From IMG/VR virus record IMGVR_UViG_2563366823_000003: a stretch of DNA of 43,465 bases; one strand, given 5' to 3'. The position numbers were made by a program, and so were the translations under genes. Shown here one piece after another: positions 1,099 through 9,030 of the stretch. Source of the stretch: a virus. Its lineage: Duplodnaviria; Heunggongvirae; Uroviricota; Caudoviricetes. Every line of letters begins with the position of its first letter. Position 1 is the stretch's first letter. The notes under the pieces are model-generated. The model had not been told where the DNA came from. It searched no databases and was given only the letters and a program-made list of their open reading frames with translations.

Positions 1099-1397
1099 TC
1101 AACAAACAACAAAATCTTTTAGAATTAATGTGTTAAATAAATTTATGCTCATCTTTTAATCCCTAACACATACCATTACATATTAATACATTCAATTAGT
1201 TACCATTTTTTTCGAGTTTTTTAGAGAAATTTTCGGGAATATTTCAGATCAATCCATGCATACACAAGCAATTCCTGTATTGAATAATTCCGTAGCAATT
1301 ATGTAAAATCACCTCCGGCTGATTTTCATTCAAACTCGCGCTATCGAACGTCCATCAGCCAGCCGTGGCACGTTCTTGCATACGACGTGCTACGGTT

Positions 1398-1527
1398 TCA
1401 TTTATCTCCGACCGGAAACTTCTTATACAAAGTCGATACGCCAACATCATAGATGATCGCCACCTTCTGGCGAGAAACTCCTGATGCAATTAGTCGTCCA
1501 GCCTGCGCCCATTGCTCCGGCGTGAGA
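1398..1527 (-). pseudogene. pin: 3' remnant of a Pin/Gin/Hin-family DNA invertase (C-terminal HTH only)
   Basis: Minus-strand translation LTPEQWAQAGRLIASGVSRQKVAIIYDVGVSTLYKKFPVGDK* matches the recalled C-terminus of E. coli Pin; no N-terminal resolvase domain upstream. Confidence 0.7.
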
Positions 1528-1610
1528 GTAAGACAGTAAACTGTAGAAAAATCTCATTAAACTTAATATAATAATAAGTTACAGAATTATCTTTACTGAA
1601 TAATAGATAT

Positions 1611-2156
1611 ATGAACATTAGTGAACTTAAAAACTGTATACACTATGAAGTAATAGGTTATAAACGCCCTTTCTCCTGGCGAAAAGCAATTGTTCGCGCA
1701 ATAAAACACAGAAGATTACGTTATTTATTTTGGTGGCGCATAGCAAAATATCTTTTTGATAAAGGCGGATACCGGCGAAAGGTTGCAGGAAAAATAGAAC
1801 GCTTCATTCTTGATAAATACAATGTAACCGTTCCCTTAACTGTAAATATTGGTAAAGGGTTCGACATATCTTATCTCAATGGCGTTGTTATCGGTCACAA
1901 AGTTACAATAGGTGAAAATTGTTCAATTAAGCCTGGAGTAACTATTGGACTTCGCGGTGAATTTAATGATATGGATATTGTCATAGGAAATAATGTAACC
2001 ATCGGCTGTAACGCCACCATCCTTGGTGGCAAAGTGCATATAGGGAATAATGTAAAAATAGGAGCTCATGCATTAGTACTGCATGACATTCCTGATGACT
2101 CCACATTCATTACTAAATTTCACTCTGAAATTATTTATAACTCATCTCACACATAA
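1611..2156 (+). CDS. hexapeptide-repeat (left-handed beta-helix) acyl/acetyltransferase; low-GC cargo gene
   Basis: 181 aa with repeated [LIV]G-x-x-x-x hexapeptide units (VIGHKVTIGENCSIKPGVTIG, VIGNNVTIGCNATILGGKVHIGNNVKIG); AT-rich relative to flanking phage genes. Confidence 0.75.
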   Translation: MNISELKNCIHYEVIGYKRPFSWRKAIVRAIKHRRLRYLFWWRIAKYLFDKGGYRRKVAGKIERFILDKYNVTVPLTVNIGKGFDISYLNGVVIGHKVTIGENCSIKPGVTIGLRGEFNDMDIVIGNNVTIGCNATILGGKVHIGNNVKIGAHALVLHDIPDDSTFITKFHSEIIYNSSHT

Positions 2157-2238
2157 TTCCGTTTAATCACAGCTCTGGCCATACGATATCCGGGGCTGTA
2201 TTTATATCAATCCGACTCACTAATACCCGGTATTTTTT

Positions 2239-2739
2239 CTAGGAAGATAGCATCGAGACTTCCTCATCAGTTGCCATTTCAAAATTAACAGCATCCTGCA
2301 GAATTGTTATGTTATCAGTCGCTTCCTGGATTAATCTTGCCTTTTTCTCTTCCGCCTCCCGGATCCGGAACAGTTTTTCTGCTTCTGCATCTTTCACCCA
2401 AGCTGTGCCGTTCCACTTCTGAAACTCCCCATCCGGCGACAACCAGGTGACATTTTCCGGTAATGGGCCAAGTTCAGAAATAAATAACGCGTCCCCTGAT
2501 GCCACGTCATAAACCGTTTTACCCCGATGGTCTTCAACGAGATGCCACGATGCCTCATCACTGTTGAAAACAGCCACAAAGCCAGCCGGAATATCTGGCG
2601 GTGCAATATCGGTACTGTTTGCAGGCAGACCTGTATGAGGCGGAATATATGCGTCACCTTCACCAATAAATTCATTAGTTCCGGCCAGCAGGTTATAAAT
2701 TTTTATGGTCCGTGCTTGTTCACTCATTCTGAATGCCAT
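2239..2739 (-). CDS. tfa: tail fibre assembly protein (lambda Tfa family)
   Basis: N-terminus [57 protein letters not shown] closely matches recalled lambda Tfa; ATG overlaps the stop of the upstream fibre gene. Confidence 0.85.
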
Positions 2740-3836
2740 TATGCGAGCCTCACAATATAGTTAAATGCGATGTTTTTGACGGTGTTTTCCGCGTTACCAG
2801 CAGCGTTAACGGTGATGGTGTGTCCATGTGAACCAATCGCAACAGAGTGCGTATGTGCACCAATAGCGACAGTATGTGTATGCGCCCCAGCACTTGCTGC
2901 AGTACCTGATACTGAGTGGGTATGCGCGCCAGCAGAATTCGTTGCACCTAAGTGAGTTTGAGCAGAGTTCGACGAAGCTACTCTACCGGAGCTAACGTTA
3001 GCATTATCCCCCTGAGATATCGGATGCGTATGTGCACCTGCTGAAGCTGCTGTTCCGCTAACGCTATGGGTATGCGCACCAGTGTTATTCGTAGATTTAG
3101 TTCCATAATCAAACGATGATGTGTTTTTTGTCCCTAAATCTGTATTGGAAGCACTGGCGCTGTGGGTGTGCGATTTAATGCCGTCCTGTTCCTGGCTAAG
3201 AACATCACGTCCACTTGCAGGCTTACCTTTGATTGTCCAGCCACGCATATCAGGGATCACGCCTGACGGATAAGCGGCTGCAAGTTTCGGGTATGCAGAC
3301 TTGTCAAAAGTCTGTCCCTGCATCAGAGCATAACCAGATGGAACTGTATCTGATGGCCACGGGATCGGGGCACCTACAGGAAAGGTCGAATTATTTTCCA
3401 AACCAAGATATTTAAGGACATCAGCAACAGAGCTTTTTGCCAAAATATCTCGCCCAACCTGTGTCAGGTCAGCCAAATTAGCGGTATCTTGATTGGTAAA
3501 ATACGGTAATTTGTTTTCGGATGCTGAAAGATTAGCAAGTGCGGTAAGTATGGCATTAATTCTCTGATAGTTCTTATCTAATGCAGACGACATTTTTGCG
3601 ATAAATCCGGCCTGATCGCCATCGTCCTGTACATCCAGTCCACTTTCATTTGCTGTATATTGTGCCATTGCAGATGCAATAAAGCTGGCCTGCCGAATAA
3701 CCTTATTGACTTGCGCACTGGATGCTTTCCCTGCTGTAAATCCGGATAAAAGCGCAGGTAATGCTTCCCATTCCTCCTGCGACATAACATTGGCATTCCG
3801 ATCAGTTGCAAACGCTTTAAAGTCATTTTTCGCCAT
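2739..3836 (-). CDS. side tail fibre protein with His-rich C-terminal repeats (GAHTHS x5)
   Basis: 365-aa ORF immediately upstream of tfa; repeated [15 protein letters not shown] units; start placed at ATG 3836 overlapping the upstream stop (TGATG). Confidence 0.8.
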
Positions 3837-4516
3837 CAGAGTAATACTCCCCATGCCCCTACATCAAAACCACTGATAAATTCGTTATCCATATCAAAAC
3901 CAAAAAATTTTGAGCCTTCCGATGGAGTTTCCACCGAAGGTGTTTCAATGCCACCCGCCCACACCCCGGCGGCTTTTACTGTGAGATATCCCTGTTTAAT
4001 TGCAGCAATTAACTCACGCGATACATCTGAAATATCAGTATCAGGAAAGACCCAGACCGATATCGTCATGTCCTGGTTATCGACAATCTGCATTCGCAGC
4101 CCGGATCCTGCTGTCGCCGCGTCAAGAATTGCTGGAAGCGAATCATTCCGTCCGTCCCAGTTATTAATCGCAATCTTCGCTTTAAGGATGGCACGATAAG
4201 TTTCATCGCTGAGGTACATGTATCCGGAATCAGGATCGTATGGTCCCTGCCATACACCCTGATCATATCCAAGCCCGTCGGTATCCCAGCTGAAATAGAC
4301 ACCTGAGATAGGCTGGCTGACAACACGGCTACGTCCGATCCACAATCCCAGAATGTCAAGTTGCACACCAACCGCAGAGTCAATATCAAATGCAGTAATC
4401 AGCCCTCTGGTGGCAGCCGCAACATCAATAAGCGGCCGGGTCATCAGATCAACATGTGCAAGAAATTTAGGTTTGGTGGCGTGATAGTTTGTGATTAGTT
4501 CGGTGTATTTGCTCAT
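3836..4516 (-). CDS. putative tail/baseplate protein (Mu gp48-like position, YmfQ-like)
   Basis: 226-aa ORF between the baseplate J-like gene and the tail fibre gene, overlapping both; family assignment from recall only. Confidence 0.5.
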
Positions 4517-5712
4517 GACTCCACCGTTATAACGATATTTTCCGGGGTACAGGACGCAGATTCGTTATATCTGATATCAATGTTTGATGACGACAAAGCC
4601 CCCGGGGATTTCCCAATCGTCAGTTCCTGAATATCGTAATAGCGTGCATTCCCGCCACTCGCCACGCCAAGATTCGCCGGTGAGTAAATGCGACTTAAAA
4701 GGACTGAATCACCAATCGTCAGACTATTGATATAGTCGGAAATAGCCTGCTGGATCTGCTGCCCTATCTGTGAGGTATAACCCGTAAAAACTTTTAATTT
4801 AATCCGGGCATAAACAGGCACATCACTGGAACGCGAGAATTTGATTACATGGGGATTGCCGTATTTATCCGGAACCGTAACGGATGTTGTACCGTGAGTG
4901 GCTGTCCCCTGGCCTTTATTCCCTCTGATAGCCTGAGCAATATCCGTCACATCACCGCCATCCACAATTACAGCAACAGAGTGTGGCGGTAACCCGTTAC
5001 CGTCCTCCGAACCAGTATCGTTTTCATAGAGTTTGTGGCGGGTTACACCGGTAACATTAGAAACAGCACCATCCAGTGCTTCAAATGGGGTTATTGATGG
5101 CAACGCAACACTTTGCGACTGGCGGATACGTAACTCCGCGTCAGTTTCTGCCGGAGTGCCCACAGTAGCCGCAGCAGGATTAGTTACCGAAACCCAGCCA
5201 CGGGTTGGCGTATTAATTTCAGTGATAGTTCCAGCCAGCGCCGCCACTGCACCACTGACGGAACATGTTGCGGTCACCATCACTGTACCATCCACGCCGA
5301 CCACCACTGAAGCAGGCAAACGCCATATCACATTATTACTGTCTTTCACGCTGCCATTAATGATGGTTGTTCCGGCAGTTCCTGTAAGAAGCAAATCAAC
5401 CGTAGAATTCGTCGCGCCTTTACGTGAAATACCATTTATTTTCACGTTACTGGTCAGTGCGGCCCCATAGCCGGTTGCTGGTGAAAAACAGTTGTAGACA
5501 GTTATCGCCATATTATTGGCATCATGAATCGCCAGCGCTATCAGAGCCACCATCTGACCGTCTTTACTGTCCGGTTCGAGGTAGGCATCACTACCATAAA
5601 TCTGCTGAAAATAGCTAATCAGGGTGCTGAGTATCGTCTGATAATCAGGCGCACTGATCCCCTCCGCGGTTACCTTTGCAGATAAACCGAGAGAATCAAG
5701 GTTCAGAGCCAT
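4513..5712 (-). CDS. baseplate J-like protein (Mu gp47 / P2 gpJ family)
   Basis: 399-aa ORF in conserved baseplate gene order; size and position typical of baseplate J. Confidence 0.6.
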   Translation of the reverse strand: MALNLDSLGLSAKVTAEGISAPDYQTILSTLISYFQQIYGSDAYLEPDSKDGQMVALIALAIHDANNMAITVYNCFSPATGYGAALTSNVKINGISRKGATNSTVDLLLTGTAGTTIINGSVKDSNNVIWRLPASVVVGVDGTVMVTATCSVSGAVAALAGTITEINTPTRGWVSVTNPAAATVGTPAETDAELRIRQSQSVALPSITPFEALDGAVSNVTGVTRHKLYENDTGSEDGNGLPPHSVAVIVDGGDVTDIAQAIRGNKGQGTATHGTTSVTVPDKYGNPHVIKFSRSSDVPVYARIKLKVFTGYTSQIGQQIQQAISDYINSLTIGDSVLLSRIYSPANLGVASGGNARYYDIQELTIGKSPGALSSSNIDIRYNESASCTPENIVITVES

Positions 5713-7053: not shown

Positions 7054-7608
7054 CTATGCCTTATTTATCAAAAGAAAAGTAACCGATAATATGAAAAAAC
7101 CGAAAGATAACGCAATTCCTTCAAAAAGATAACGAGCATAAACTGCCTTTTCTTTATGAAGACTTTCGATCAATTCAACAGCTTTACCATACTGAAACAT
7201 ATGGTATCTAAGCGTTTTAATTTTATCACCGTAAAGTAAAAAATCATGCTCTTCTTTTCGCTTATGAATAGGCATTTTTGGTATATCTTTCAGTCCCCAA
7301 GTACGCCATAGGAAAAAAAAGCACATAACAATACAAACAAAGCACAGATATGCACAAAGTATAGATAATGTTAAAAACCAATTACTCTTTAGCCCACTTT
7401 TGAAATCAACAGTCCCAAATACAGCCAGTAGAGCAGAGGTTTCTACAGCTAAAATAGCAAGAAGGTAGTTAACTTTGTCCTCAAGACGACGATATGTTGA
7501 TTTTGCTTCCTCATATCTATCTTTATAATATGACGAAATAAAATCAGCGCCTATAGTCTCAATTGCCTTTTGTTCTTCTGTTGTATCTATTGGCGAACGC
7601 TTGCTCAT
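7054..7608 (-). CDS. hypothetical integral membrane protein (2-3 predicted TM helices); low-GC moron
   Basis: 184 aa with hydrophobic stretches LLAILAVETSALLAVFG, FLTLSILCAYLCFVCIVMCFFFLW and IALSFGFFILSVTFLLI; markedly AT-rich compared with flanking baseplate genes. Confidence 0.6.
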   Translation of the reverse strand: MSKRSPIDTTEEQKAIETIGADFISSYYKDRYEEAKSTYRRLEDKVNYLLAILAVETSALLAVFGTVDFKSGLKSNWFLTLSILCAYLCFVCIVMCFFFLWRTWGLKDIPKMPIHKRKEEHDFLLYGDKIKTLRYHMFQYGKAVELIESLHKEKAVYARYLFEGIALSFGFFILSVTFLLINKA

Positions 7609-7615
7609 TTCTTAA

Positions 7616-7963
7616 TCAACCAACAACTTTCTTACACGGGAAAGAGCCAATAATTTTCGGAGCATCCATGCTGTTCTGCAACAACTGGACGTTCAGGAAA
7701 CGCGTTTTAGTGCCCGGTCGATGGATATACTCGAACCCATAATTGTTGCCATCTTTGGCAGGCATCAGCTCCATTTTGATCTGCATGCCTGTACCGTCTT
7801 TACCCAACATTTTTACTTTTTGGGACGTTACTGTTTCGCCATTGATTTTAAATAATGAGTCAGGGATCGCATCCATACGAAAGTTGCCGCATTGCATCGT
7901 TATGGTGTTTGCACTTACACCAACAGACACTAACGCCAGCAATGAAAATATCCATCGTTTCAT
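7616..7963 (-). CDS. hypothetical secreted/periplasmic protein (115 aa) with Sec signal peptide
   Basis: Start at ATG 7963 (GAGAGGA upstream) gives MKRWIFSLLALVSVGVSA signal peptide; two Cys in the mature part; the track's longer N-terminus is unlikely. Confidence 0.55.
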   Translation of the reverse strand: MKRWIFSLLALVSVGVSANTITMQCGNFRMDAIPDSLFKINGETVTSQKVKMLGKDGTGMQIKMELMPAKDGNNYGFEYIHRPGTKTRFLNVQLLQNSMDAPKIIGSFPCKKVVG

Positions 7964-7965
7964 TT

Positions 7966-9030
7966 CTATAATCCTCTCTGCAAAGCAGTGCTGGATGGCA
8001 TATCCTGCGCACCGCGCGCTTCGCACATCATATCCATGTACCACGCCTGGCCCCTTGTGTCGCCAGTGTACATAATCCCGCGCACAATATAAACGCCATC
8101 CGTTGCGATGCTGGCAGGCTGCGATGTGGTGCCGCTTAGCGTGATATTTCCATCCGTGTTCTGGTCGGTGATCTGACCACCAGCCATCGCAATATCGTTG
8201 TTCGACAACGCGGTACGATACACTGAAACCTGATCCAGCTGAATGAGTCCGTTAACCCGGATGTTCGGATTAATAAGCGCGCGGACGTTTACGCCGTTAC
8301 CGATAGTCTGCTGCGGCATGCCAATAAGCCCGGTAGCGCTGTTGAGCACAATCGCTTCATGAACATATTCGTTATTCGCCACCATCTGGCGCTGGCCGTC
8401 CACGAATTGCCATGTTGCGCCACATTGCCCGGCTACGTTATCCATTAGATGCCGCGTCATGCCAAAGAGTACCCGCCCCCGGGGGAATACAGTAGCAGGC
8501 ATTTCAGGCGTCAGGCCTTCGGTCGCGCCTTTGGCTTCGAAGTCTTTCATCAGCGCACGGCTCACATCAGCGACCGTGTAACCGGCAGCCAGCGTCTGTG
8601 AGGTTATACTGGTGGCAAAAGCCAGATCTGTATCGGCTGCCTGAATCAGGACGTAGGTATCAACCGGACTGTCTTTTCCTGTGACCGAGTAGCGAATTTC
8701 ACCGCTGAAAATCAGTCCGTAGTTGCGGCCATCACTCTGGCCCACGTCCGCCGCGTCAACTTCCCGCACTGTCCCGACGTCGCTTGCCGACACCTCCGGC
8801 GCGATACCGTCGTAACCCGCAATCAGACGCACTTTCGAAAACTCCTGCCCGGTGATTCGGTTCACAGTATCTGCCGAGAGGTTATAAATTTTGATAGTCC
8901 CTACCCGGGACGCGCTGCTGATGTTGAACCAGTCGATCGTAAAGGTGACTTTAAAATCACTTAGCTCAATTCCCTGACCGTTCCCGTCCACAAGCTGCAG
9001 CTCGAAATGTCTCATCCAGTTCTGTGACAT
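7966..9030 (-). CDS. putative baseplate hub protein (Mu gp44-like position)
   Basis: ORF in the tail module; ATG 9030 preceded by GGAG, immediately after the upstream stop. Confidence 0.5.
   Translation of the reverse strand: MSQNWMRHFELQLVDGNGQGIELSDFKVTFTIDWFNISSASRVGTIKIYNLSADTVNRITGQEFSKVRLIAGYDGIAPEVSASDVGTVREVDAADVGQSDGRNYGLIFSGEIRYSVTGKDSPVDTYVLIQAADTDLAFATSITSQTLAAGYTVADVSRALMKDFEAKGATEGLTPEMPATVFPRGRVLFGMTRHLMDNVAGQCGATWQFVDGQRQMVANNEYVHEAIVLNSATGLIGMPQQTIGNGVNVRALINPNIRVNGLIQLDQVSVYRTALSNNDIAMAGGQITDQNTDGNITLSGTTSQPASIATDGVYIVRGIMYTGDTRGQAWYMDMMCEARGAQDMPSSTALQRGL

Follow-up and report, generated by a model that had tools for sequence, protein, structure and literature searches.

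The tail fibre gene described here ends in a region crowded with histidine-containing HxH motifs, and two questions follow from it: whether the motifs build a metal-coordinated receptor-binding tip such as those of T4 gp37 and lambda Stf, and whether the DNA that encodes them is a tandem array that recombines to vary the length of the fibre. We addressed both within a stretch of 43,465 nt, read on one strand (the window). We are highly confident that this is the tail fibre gene of a temperate myovirus prophage and that its product carries a T4 gp37/lambda Stf-type receptor-binding module. The reading of such a region as a metal-binding tip is already textbook; the reading of its DNA as a tandem array is unsupported for the present sequence.

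The initial annotation placed the gene correctly (minus strand, 2739-3836; Table 1). The longest open reading frame runs from 3854 to the stop codon at 2739-2741 and encodes 371 residues; residue numbers throughout refer to this 371-aa frame and not to the 365-aa product. Translation likely starts at the ATG at 3836, in a TGATG overlap with the stop codon of the DUF2612 gene upstream, and the close database homologues all begin at the corresponding MAKNDF, giving a product of 365 aa. Homologues that are 98-99% identical have this same length and carry the name 'tail fiber protein', and among PHROGs phrog_295 (tail fiber protein) matches best, with E = 2e-135. The reading frame is intact and differs by 2 aa from its copy in a 98%-identical prophage (L001). 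The PGAP pseudogene flag carried by the fibre gene in relatives seems to be an annotation artefact, the L001 copy being an intact reading frame.

Table 1. Features of the fibre region and its surroundings (positions in the window; residues numbered in the 371-aa reading frame)
Feature	Position	Strand	Basis and remarks
Exchangeable block: collar and tip, tfa, acetyltransferase gene, invertase remnant	1326-3365		Comparison with lambdoid prophage
tfa, tail fibre assembly chaperone, 166 aa	2239-2739	-	Pfam Caudo_TAP, E = 2e-22
Tail fibre gene, 365 aa from ATG at 3836	2739-3836	-	ORF list and sequence
C-terminal segment back to collar (aa 355-371)	2742-2792	-	Last 17 residues the same in T4 gp37 and lambda Stf
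Return needle stem (aa 305-354), HxH 4-7	2793-2942	-	Aligned to T4 gp37 residues 960-1009
HxH 4, 5, 6, 7	2916-2924, 2874-2882, 2847-2855, 2820-2828	-	Sequence
Sole DNA-level tandem periodicity	2826-2889		27-bp unit, 2.4 copies, 78% match (Tandem Repeats Finder)
Head/tip loop (about aa 278-304)	2943-3023	-	Corresponds to T4 gp37 tip subdomain 932-959
Outward needle stem (aa 228-277), HxH 1-3	3024-3173	-	Aligned to T4 gp37 residues 882-931
HxH 1, 2, 3	3162-3170, 3066-3074, 3024-3032	-	Sequence
Collar/knob, first part (aa 156-227)	3174-3389	-	Pfam Collar and 2XGF alignment; corresponds to T4 gp37 D10
N-terminal domain (aa 7-150)	3405-3836	-	Specific to prophage type
DUF2612 protein	3836-4516	-	Pfam PF11041, E = 4.5e-47
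Baseplate_J protein	4513-5712	-	Pfam PF04865, E = 6.8e-16

The two ends of the fibre have different relatives. The N-terminal domain is conserved only among E. coli and Salmonella fibres whose genes adjoin those for DUF2612 and Baseplate_J proteins; phrog_11303 matched the fibre at aa 7-157, and a comparison of this domain with PDB sequences gave no match. Judged from gene position only, the domain presumably attaches the fibre to the baseplate. The baseplate region is syntenic with those of vB_EcoM-689R2 (96.9% identity) and SEN34, and identity over the virion module as a whole (3836 to about 21,200) is 97% with Escherichia phage vB_EcoM-689R2 and 82% with Salmonella phage SEN34. On sequence likeness, then, the prophage is a relative of these two phages and a temperate myovirus. 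A scan of the window for tRNA genes found none.

The C-terminal part belongs to the gp37 family. Residues 149-371 match residues 20-242 of PDB entry 2XGF with E = 2.6e-87 (phmmer against PDB sequences); this entry is the receptor-binding tip of T4 gp37, reportedly the subject of work by Bartual et al. in 2010. Over the tip, identity to T4 gp37 is 69% (223 aa); the Stf proteins of lambda and of the lambdoid phage PhiR29_2 are closer, at 77% and 84%. Pfam Collar (PF07484) is recognised at aa 161-208 (3231-3374; E = 2.2e-12, 47.2 bits against a cut-off of 24), and Pfam Phage_fiber (PF03335) scores 36.9 bits (cut-off 20) with three repeats. AlphaFold2 monomer models of the full-length protein (52 sequences) and of the C-terminal 223 aa (51 sequences) had pLDDT values of 36.4 and 41.0. 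The fold expected of this region is an intertwined, metal-bound trimer; the failed monomer models neither favour nor contradict the gp37 fold, and sequence homology is the stronger evidence.

Seven HxH motifs begin at aa 229, 261, 275, 311, 325, 334 and 343, and 14 of the 15 histidines of the whole protein lie in such pairs. The repeats first noticed here as five copies of GAHTHS are real, but the description needs correction: five of the seven motifs read GAHTH and only three read GAHTHS exactly, and what had been taken as a repeat unit opening with G(T/S) is a single 19-aa peptide that occurs twice (aa 259-277 and 309-327). The intervals between successive motifs are 32, 14, 36, 14, 9 and 9 residues, with 28 from the last motif to the C-terminus. 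T4 gp37 also has seven motifs, at intervals of 32, 14, 37, 14, 9 and 9, and lambda Stf has eight, at 42, 14, 48, 14, 9, 9 and 9, with the same 28 residues to the C-terminus in both. All seven motifs align in the same register with the iron-binding HxH motifs of the T4 gp37 tip, so that their assignment to the metal-coordinating kind seen in T4 gp37 and lambda Stf holds. The third aligns with T4 H929/H931, which are iron ligands in a needle that carries seven iron atoms along its length (PMC6957217; the same crystal-structure result is summarised in PMC11705849).

Chance does not account for this pattern. In 20,000 shuffles of the whole protein the mean number of HxH motifs was 0.56 and the maximum 4; when the C-terminal 150 aa were shuffled (20,000 trials), seven motifs appeared in 0.01% of cases. 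The notion that the motifs are simply the product of low-complexity composition, with no role in metal binding, can be set aside as extremely improbable: the region is indeed rich in Gly, Ala, Ser, Thr and His, and the monomer AlphaFold runs gave no usable structure model, but the motifs correspond one-to-one and at the same spacing to HxH motifs solved as iron ligands, a 52-sequence alignment shows invariant histidines in the first two motifs and the last three (five of the seven), and seven motifs were never reached in the whole-protein shuffles.

The T4 structure also indicates how the chain would be arranged. The T4 gp37 stem comprises residues 882-931 and 960-1009, the tip (residues 932-959) is inserted in the stem, domain D11 is an insertion into D10, and the chain goes out along the needle and then back (PMC6957217). 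By homology to this structure we infer a trimer in which three chains would build first the collar and, beyond it, a needle of six antiparallel strands. Each HxH would contribute two histidines per chain, placing six histidines octahedrally around one metal ion (iron in T4), and seven such ions would be stacked along the fibre axis. Each chain would run outward through HxH 1-3, fold into a small distal head and return through HxH 4-7 to the collar. The receptor-binding module accounts for the C-terminal ~216 residues; the first ~145 would dock the fibre on the baseplate beside the DUF2612 and Baseplate_J proteins, and folding of the fibre would depend on the lambda-type Tfa encoded directly downstream.

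This topology relocates the receptor-binding end. The initial annotation had taken the C-terminal region as the tip; since the chain folds back, its C-terminus would return to the collar, and the distal tip would be the loop between HxH 3 and HxH 4 (aa 278-304). The sequence around this loop behaves differently from the rest of the module: over aa 278-308, identity to T4, lambda and PhiR29_2 is 16-23% (6 of 31 positions in the comparison with T4), against 75-97% in the flanks, and a single N-terminal scaffold is found with several different heads. We therefore predict that the hypervariable head is the receptor-contacting distal end and the specificity determinant, which would place the determinant at 2943-3023 and not at the C-terminus. 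The T4 residues critical for recognition of LPS and OmpC fall in this loop (PMC6957217). The head here is unrelated to the T4 and lambda heads, which suggests that the receptor is probably one other than the LPS and OmpC used by T4. The conserved HxH stem on either side would offer safe junctions for head swaps, of use in host-range prediction and fibre engineering.

Apart from its unrelated head loop, the T4 gp37 tip (2XGF) shares with this fibre its collar, all seven HxH motifs and its final 17 residues, the spacing being off by one head-loop residue. In T4 the module sits on a 1026-aa distal half-fibre; the fibre that bears it here is 365 aa long and belongs to a temperate myovirus. The T4 chaperone is gp38, whereas here it is a lambda-type Tfa (86% identical to lambda Tfa and 32% identical to gp38). 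The gene order, with overlapping stop and start codons, is that of lambda Stf/Tfa, StfR/TfaR and StfQ/TfaQ. Lambda Stf differs in having eight HxH motifs, one additional 9-aa unit and one additional 10-aa SFDYGTK unit; its head is longer and unrelated, and its N-terminal two thirds are missing here and replaced by the short myovirus-specific domain. The T4 short tail fibre gp12 and other tail-collar fibres (PDB 1OCY and 9CUY) share the collar, with weak matches at aa 155-231, but these gp12-type matches cover the collar only (E = 1.6e-08 and 0.97) and leave the HxH needle unaligned.

A further comparison is with the invertible fibre segments of Mu (G/Gin), P1 (C/Cin) and e14 (P/Pin), in which, as here, a variable fibre C-terminus and tfa stand beside sequence of invertase type. 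The resolvase/invertase-type HTH_7 fragment of the window (1398-1526) retains only the last ~42 residues of an invertase. Across the window, two sites resemble gix/hix crossover cores with a single mismatch each; both are distant from the fibre, and their number is what chance would give. Nothing like the AAACCNNGGTTT core is present close to the fibre, and the list of reading frames of the window holds no second fibre end or tfa. Unlike the Mu, P1 and e14 segments, the locus has no inverted alternative end and is at most a fossil of such a system. We therefore rejected an invertase-switched fibre segment of the Gin/Cin/Pin type, there being no intact invertase, no crossover sites and no alternative fibre end.

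At the DNA level, the initial annotation had described a tandem repeat at about 2780-3000 that could recombine to vary length. A repeat does lie in this interval, but it is weak and short (Table 1), and the units that encode HxH extend over 2820-3170. The 27-bp periodicity encodes the 9-aa units HTHTVAIGA / HTHSVAIGS / HGH. Copies of the 18-nt repeat located by find_repeats are 72-89% identical, and any two of the seven 18-mers that encode HxH agree at 7 to 15 of their 18 bases. The two identical 19-aa peptides are encoded by sequences alike at 38 of 57 nucleotides, with a longest exact in-register run of 11 nt. Drawing synonymous codons at random for a duplicate of this length gave an expectation of 41.1 +/- 2.7 identical nucleotides (P = 0.16 for the observed 38); the likeness is that of independent synonymous codon choice, and the repeats are therefore kept by selection at the protein level. 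The same comparison was examined for selection against DNA likeness, which might guard the head from recombinational deletion, and the deficit was not significant. By these measures the DNA at present offers little for homologous recombination or slippage to act on.

It is accordingly unlikely that the region is an array prone to slippage or recombination that is now varying fibre length among close prophages, although the wider family gives the idea some footing. A comparison of repeat number across relatives, as had been proposed, gave 5 to 8 HxH motifs; fibres with the same N-terminus have 5, 6 or 7, with 3 or 4 consecutive terminal units. The additional 9-aa HxH unit of lambda Stf sits exactly at the 2826-2889 periodicity, and its additional 10-aa SFDYGTK unit lies on the outward strand. 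Unit gain and loss have thus left traces among relatives, which differ by 9- and 10-aa units, but the DNA copies have diverged, with synonymous sites that look saturated, and close alleles are uniform: all seven protein clusters with this head variant have a tip of 113 aa with six HxH motifs in the measured span, and no copy-number polymorphism was found among them. Where HxH number differs between relatives, the distal needle and head have been replaced as a whole, which has the look more of cassette exchange than of slippage. We conclude that diversity arises mainly through swaps of the whole tip together with tfa, and rarely through gain or loss of a 9- or 10-residue unit.

Another reading concerns the chaperone. 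The start codon of tfa overlaps the fibre stop codon (TAATG, 2737-2741), and its codon 167 is TAG here and TGG in the L001 prophage. The premature TAG removes 24 conserved C-terminal residues; Tfa is 190 aa long in relatives and 194 aa long in lambda. A passage in PMC9608196, citing North 2019, attributes both trimerisation and assembly to a conserved C-terminal helical domain of Tfa. Because those 24 conserved residues are removed, fibre assembly may fail in this strain and the fibre may go unfolded. Carried further, the fibre system would be a relic in which Tfa is truncated and the HxH needle is never assembled in the strain, and the truncated invertase remnant nearby shows that decay of the region has already taken place.

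We regard such a relic as less likely than not. The fibre reading frame is intact, as noted above, and the prophage around it shows a long series of open reading frames, with a baseplate-to-terminase module ~97% identical to that of vB_EcoM-689R2 over 75% of a 20-kb query. The change in tfa is a single base that may be a sequencing error, an amber codon is suppressible in some hosts, and the 24 missing residues may be dispensable. The relic reading moreover bears on present activity and not on the identity of the module, which we continue to take as a gp37/Stf-type receptor-binding tip on a myovirus fibre.

The tip travels between myovirus and lambdoid prophages in company with tfa and an acetyltransferase gene. 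The exchangeable block aligns with the Stf end of an ETEC H10407 lambdoid prophage (L007) at 96.0% identity across 2042 bp, and the similarity ends at the start of the collar. Of 5426 complete E. coli genomes, 3992 contain relatives of the C-terminal ~640 bp, chiefly in StfR- and StfQ-type genes, and only 21 contain the full-length gene; the tip module occurs in 718 phage records. That phages exchange fibre ends horizontally is long known, and T4 itself acquired the end of gp37 together with g38 from a lambda-like phage (PMC3157838). The present block is a further example of tip-plus-chaperone cassettes crossing between myovirus and lambdoid prophages; this adds little beyond annotation, and the result on the fibre tip advances no open question.

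The block also carries a hexapeptide acetyltransferase gene (1611-2156). The head loop could be a rare receptor-specificity cassette whose accompanying acetyltransferase may modify the surface that the head recognises, a proposal that we consider quite improbable; if true, the block would be a unit of adhesin and superinfection exclusion, mobile between phage types. The exact head variant is found in 31 of the 5426 complete E. coli genomes, on at least three unrelated fibre scaffolds: that of the myovirus type described here, a lambdoid StfR-type scaffold (e.g. ETEC H10407) and a 'tail-collar fiber' protein. Across these scaffolds the head variant is >96% identical, and in the two cases checked it is accompanied by tfa and the hexapeptide acetyltransferase gene.

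The tail fibre assembly gene (tfa) of the window terminates at a TAG codon (minus strand), where L001, a 98%-identical prophage of E. coli 21KM1392, carries TGG (Trp). Owing to this substitution, the window Tfa comprises 166 residues rather than 190 and lacks the residues WKKYRVLVSRIDINTAPDIVWPEL. A 573-bp tfa is present in three of three relatives (STEC383, DETEC-P1056 and ETEC H10407).

The orthologues of the adjoining fibre gene are labelled by RefSeq/PGAP as pseudogenes, 'incomplete, missing N-terminus' (20001–21116 in L001; 2315–2959 in the related loci L005 and L006). Since the ORF is intact in L001 and differs from the window copy by only 2 residues, the label is probably an annotation artefact, with the mosaic N-terminus as its probable cause.

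Features flanking the fibre gene and within the baseplate region
Feature	Position	Strand	Remark
DUF1482 protein gene	1–276	plus	left of the L001 similarity limit
Calcineurin-like phosphoesterase gene	277–936	minus	left of the L001 similarity limit
HTH_7 fragment, 42 aa	1398–1526	minus	resolvase/invertase domain match, E = 8e-12
Hexapeptide-repeat acetyltransferase gene	1611–2156	plus	just past tfa
tfa	2239–2739	minus	terminal codon TAG at 2239–2241
Small ORF	7054–7608	minus	within the baseplate gene string
Small ORF	7616–8044	minus	within the baseplate gene string

A lambdoid prophage in ETEC H10407 has acquired the acetyltransferase gene, annotated in relatives as 'serine acetyltransferase', along with the exchangeable block of fibre tip and tfa; the gene may be a moron that alters a surface structure. 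The HTH_7 fragment is probably the remnant of a Pin/Gin-type invertase that formerly inverted a tail-fibre segment; a crossover-site core was looked for near the fragment and was not found.

Similarity to L001 ends at ~1354, leaving positions 1–1353 outside the match. The two genes located there are typical of lambdoid prophages, and the left prophage end may therefore adjoin another prophage or lie in an insertion context unlike that of L001, which adjoins yfhH.

The two small ORFs among the baseplate genes appear to be cargo insertions and not genes for virion components. Hydrophobic stretches in the product of the first (7054–7608) suggest a membrane protein, and a DUF2335 protein is annotated at the equivalent place in L001.
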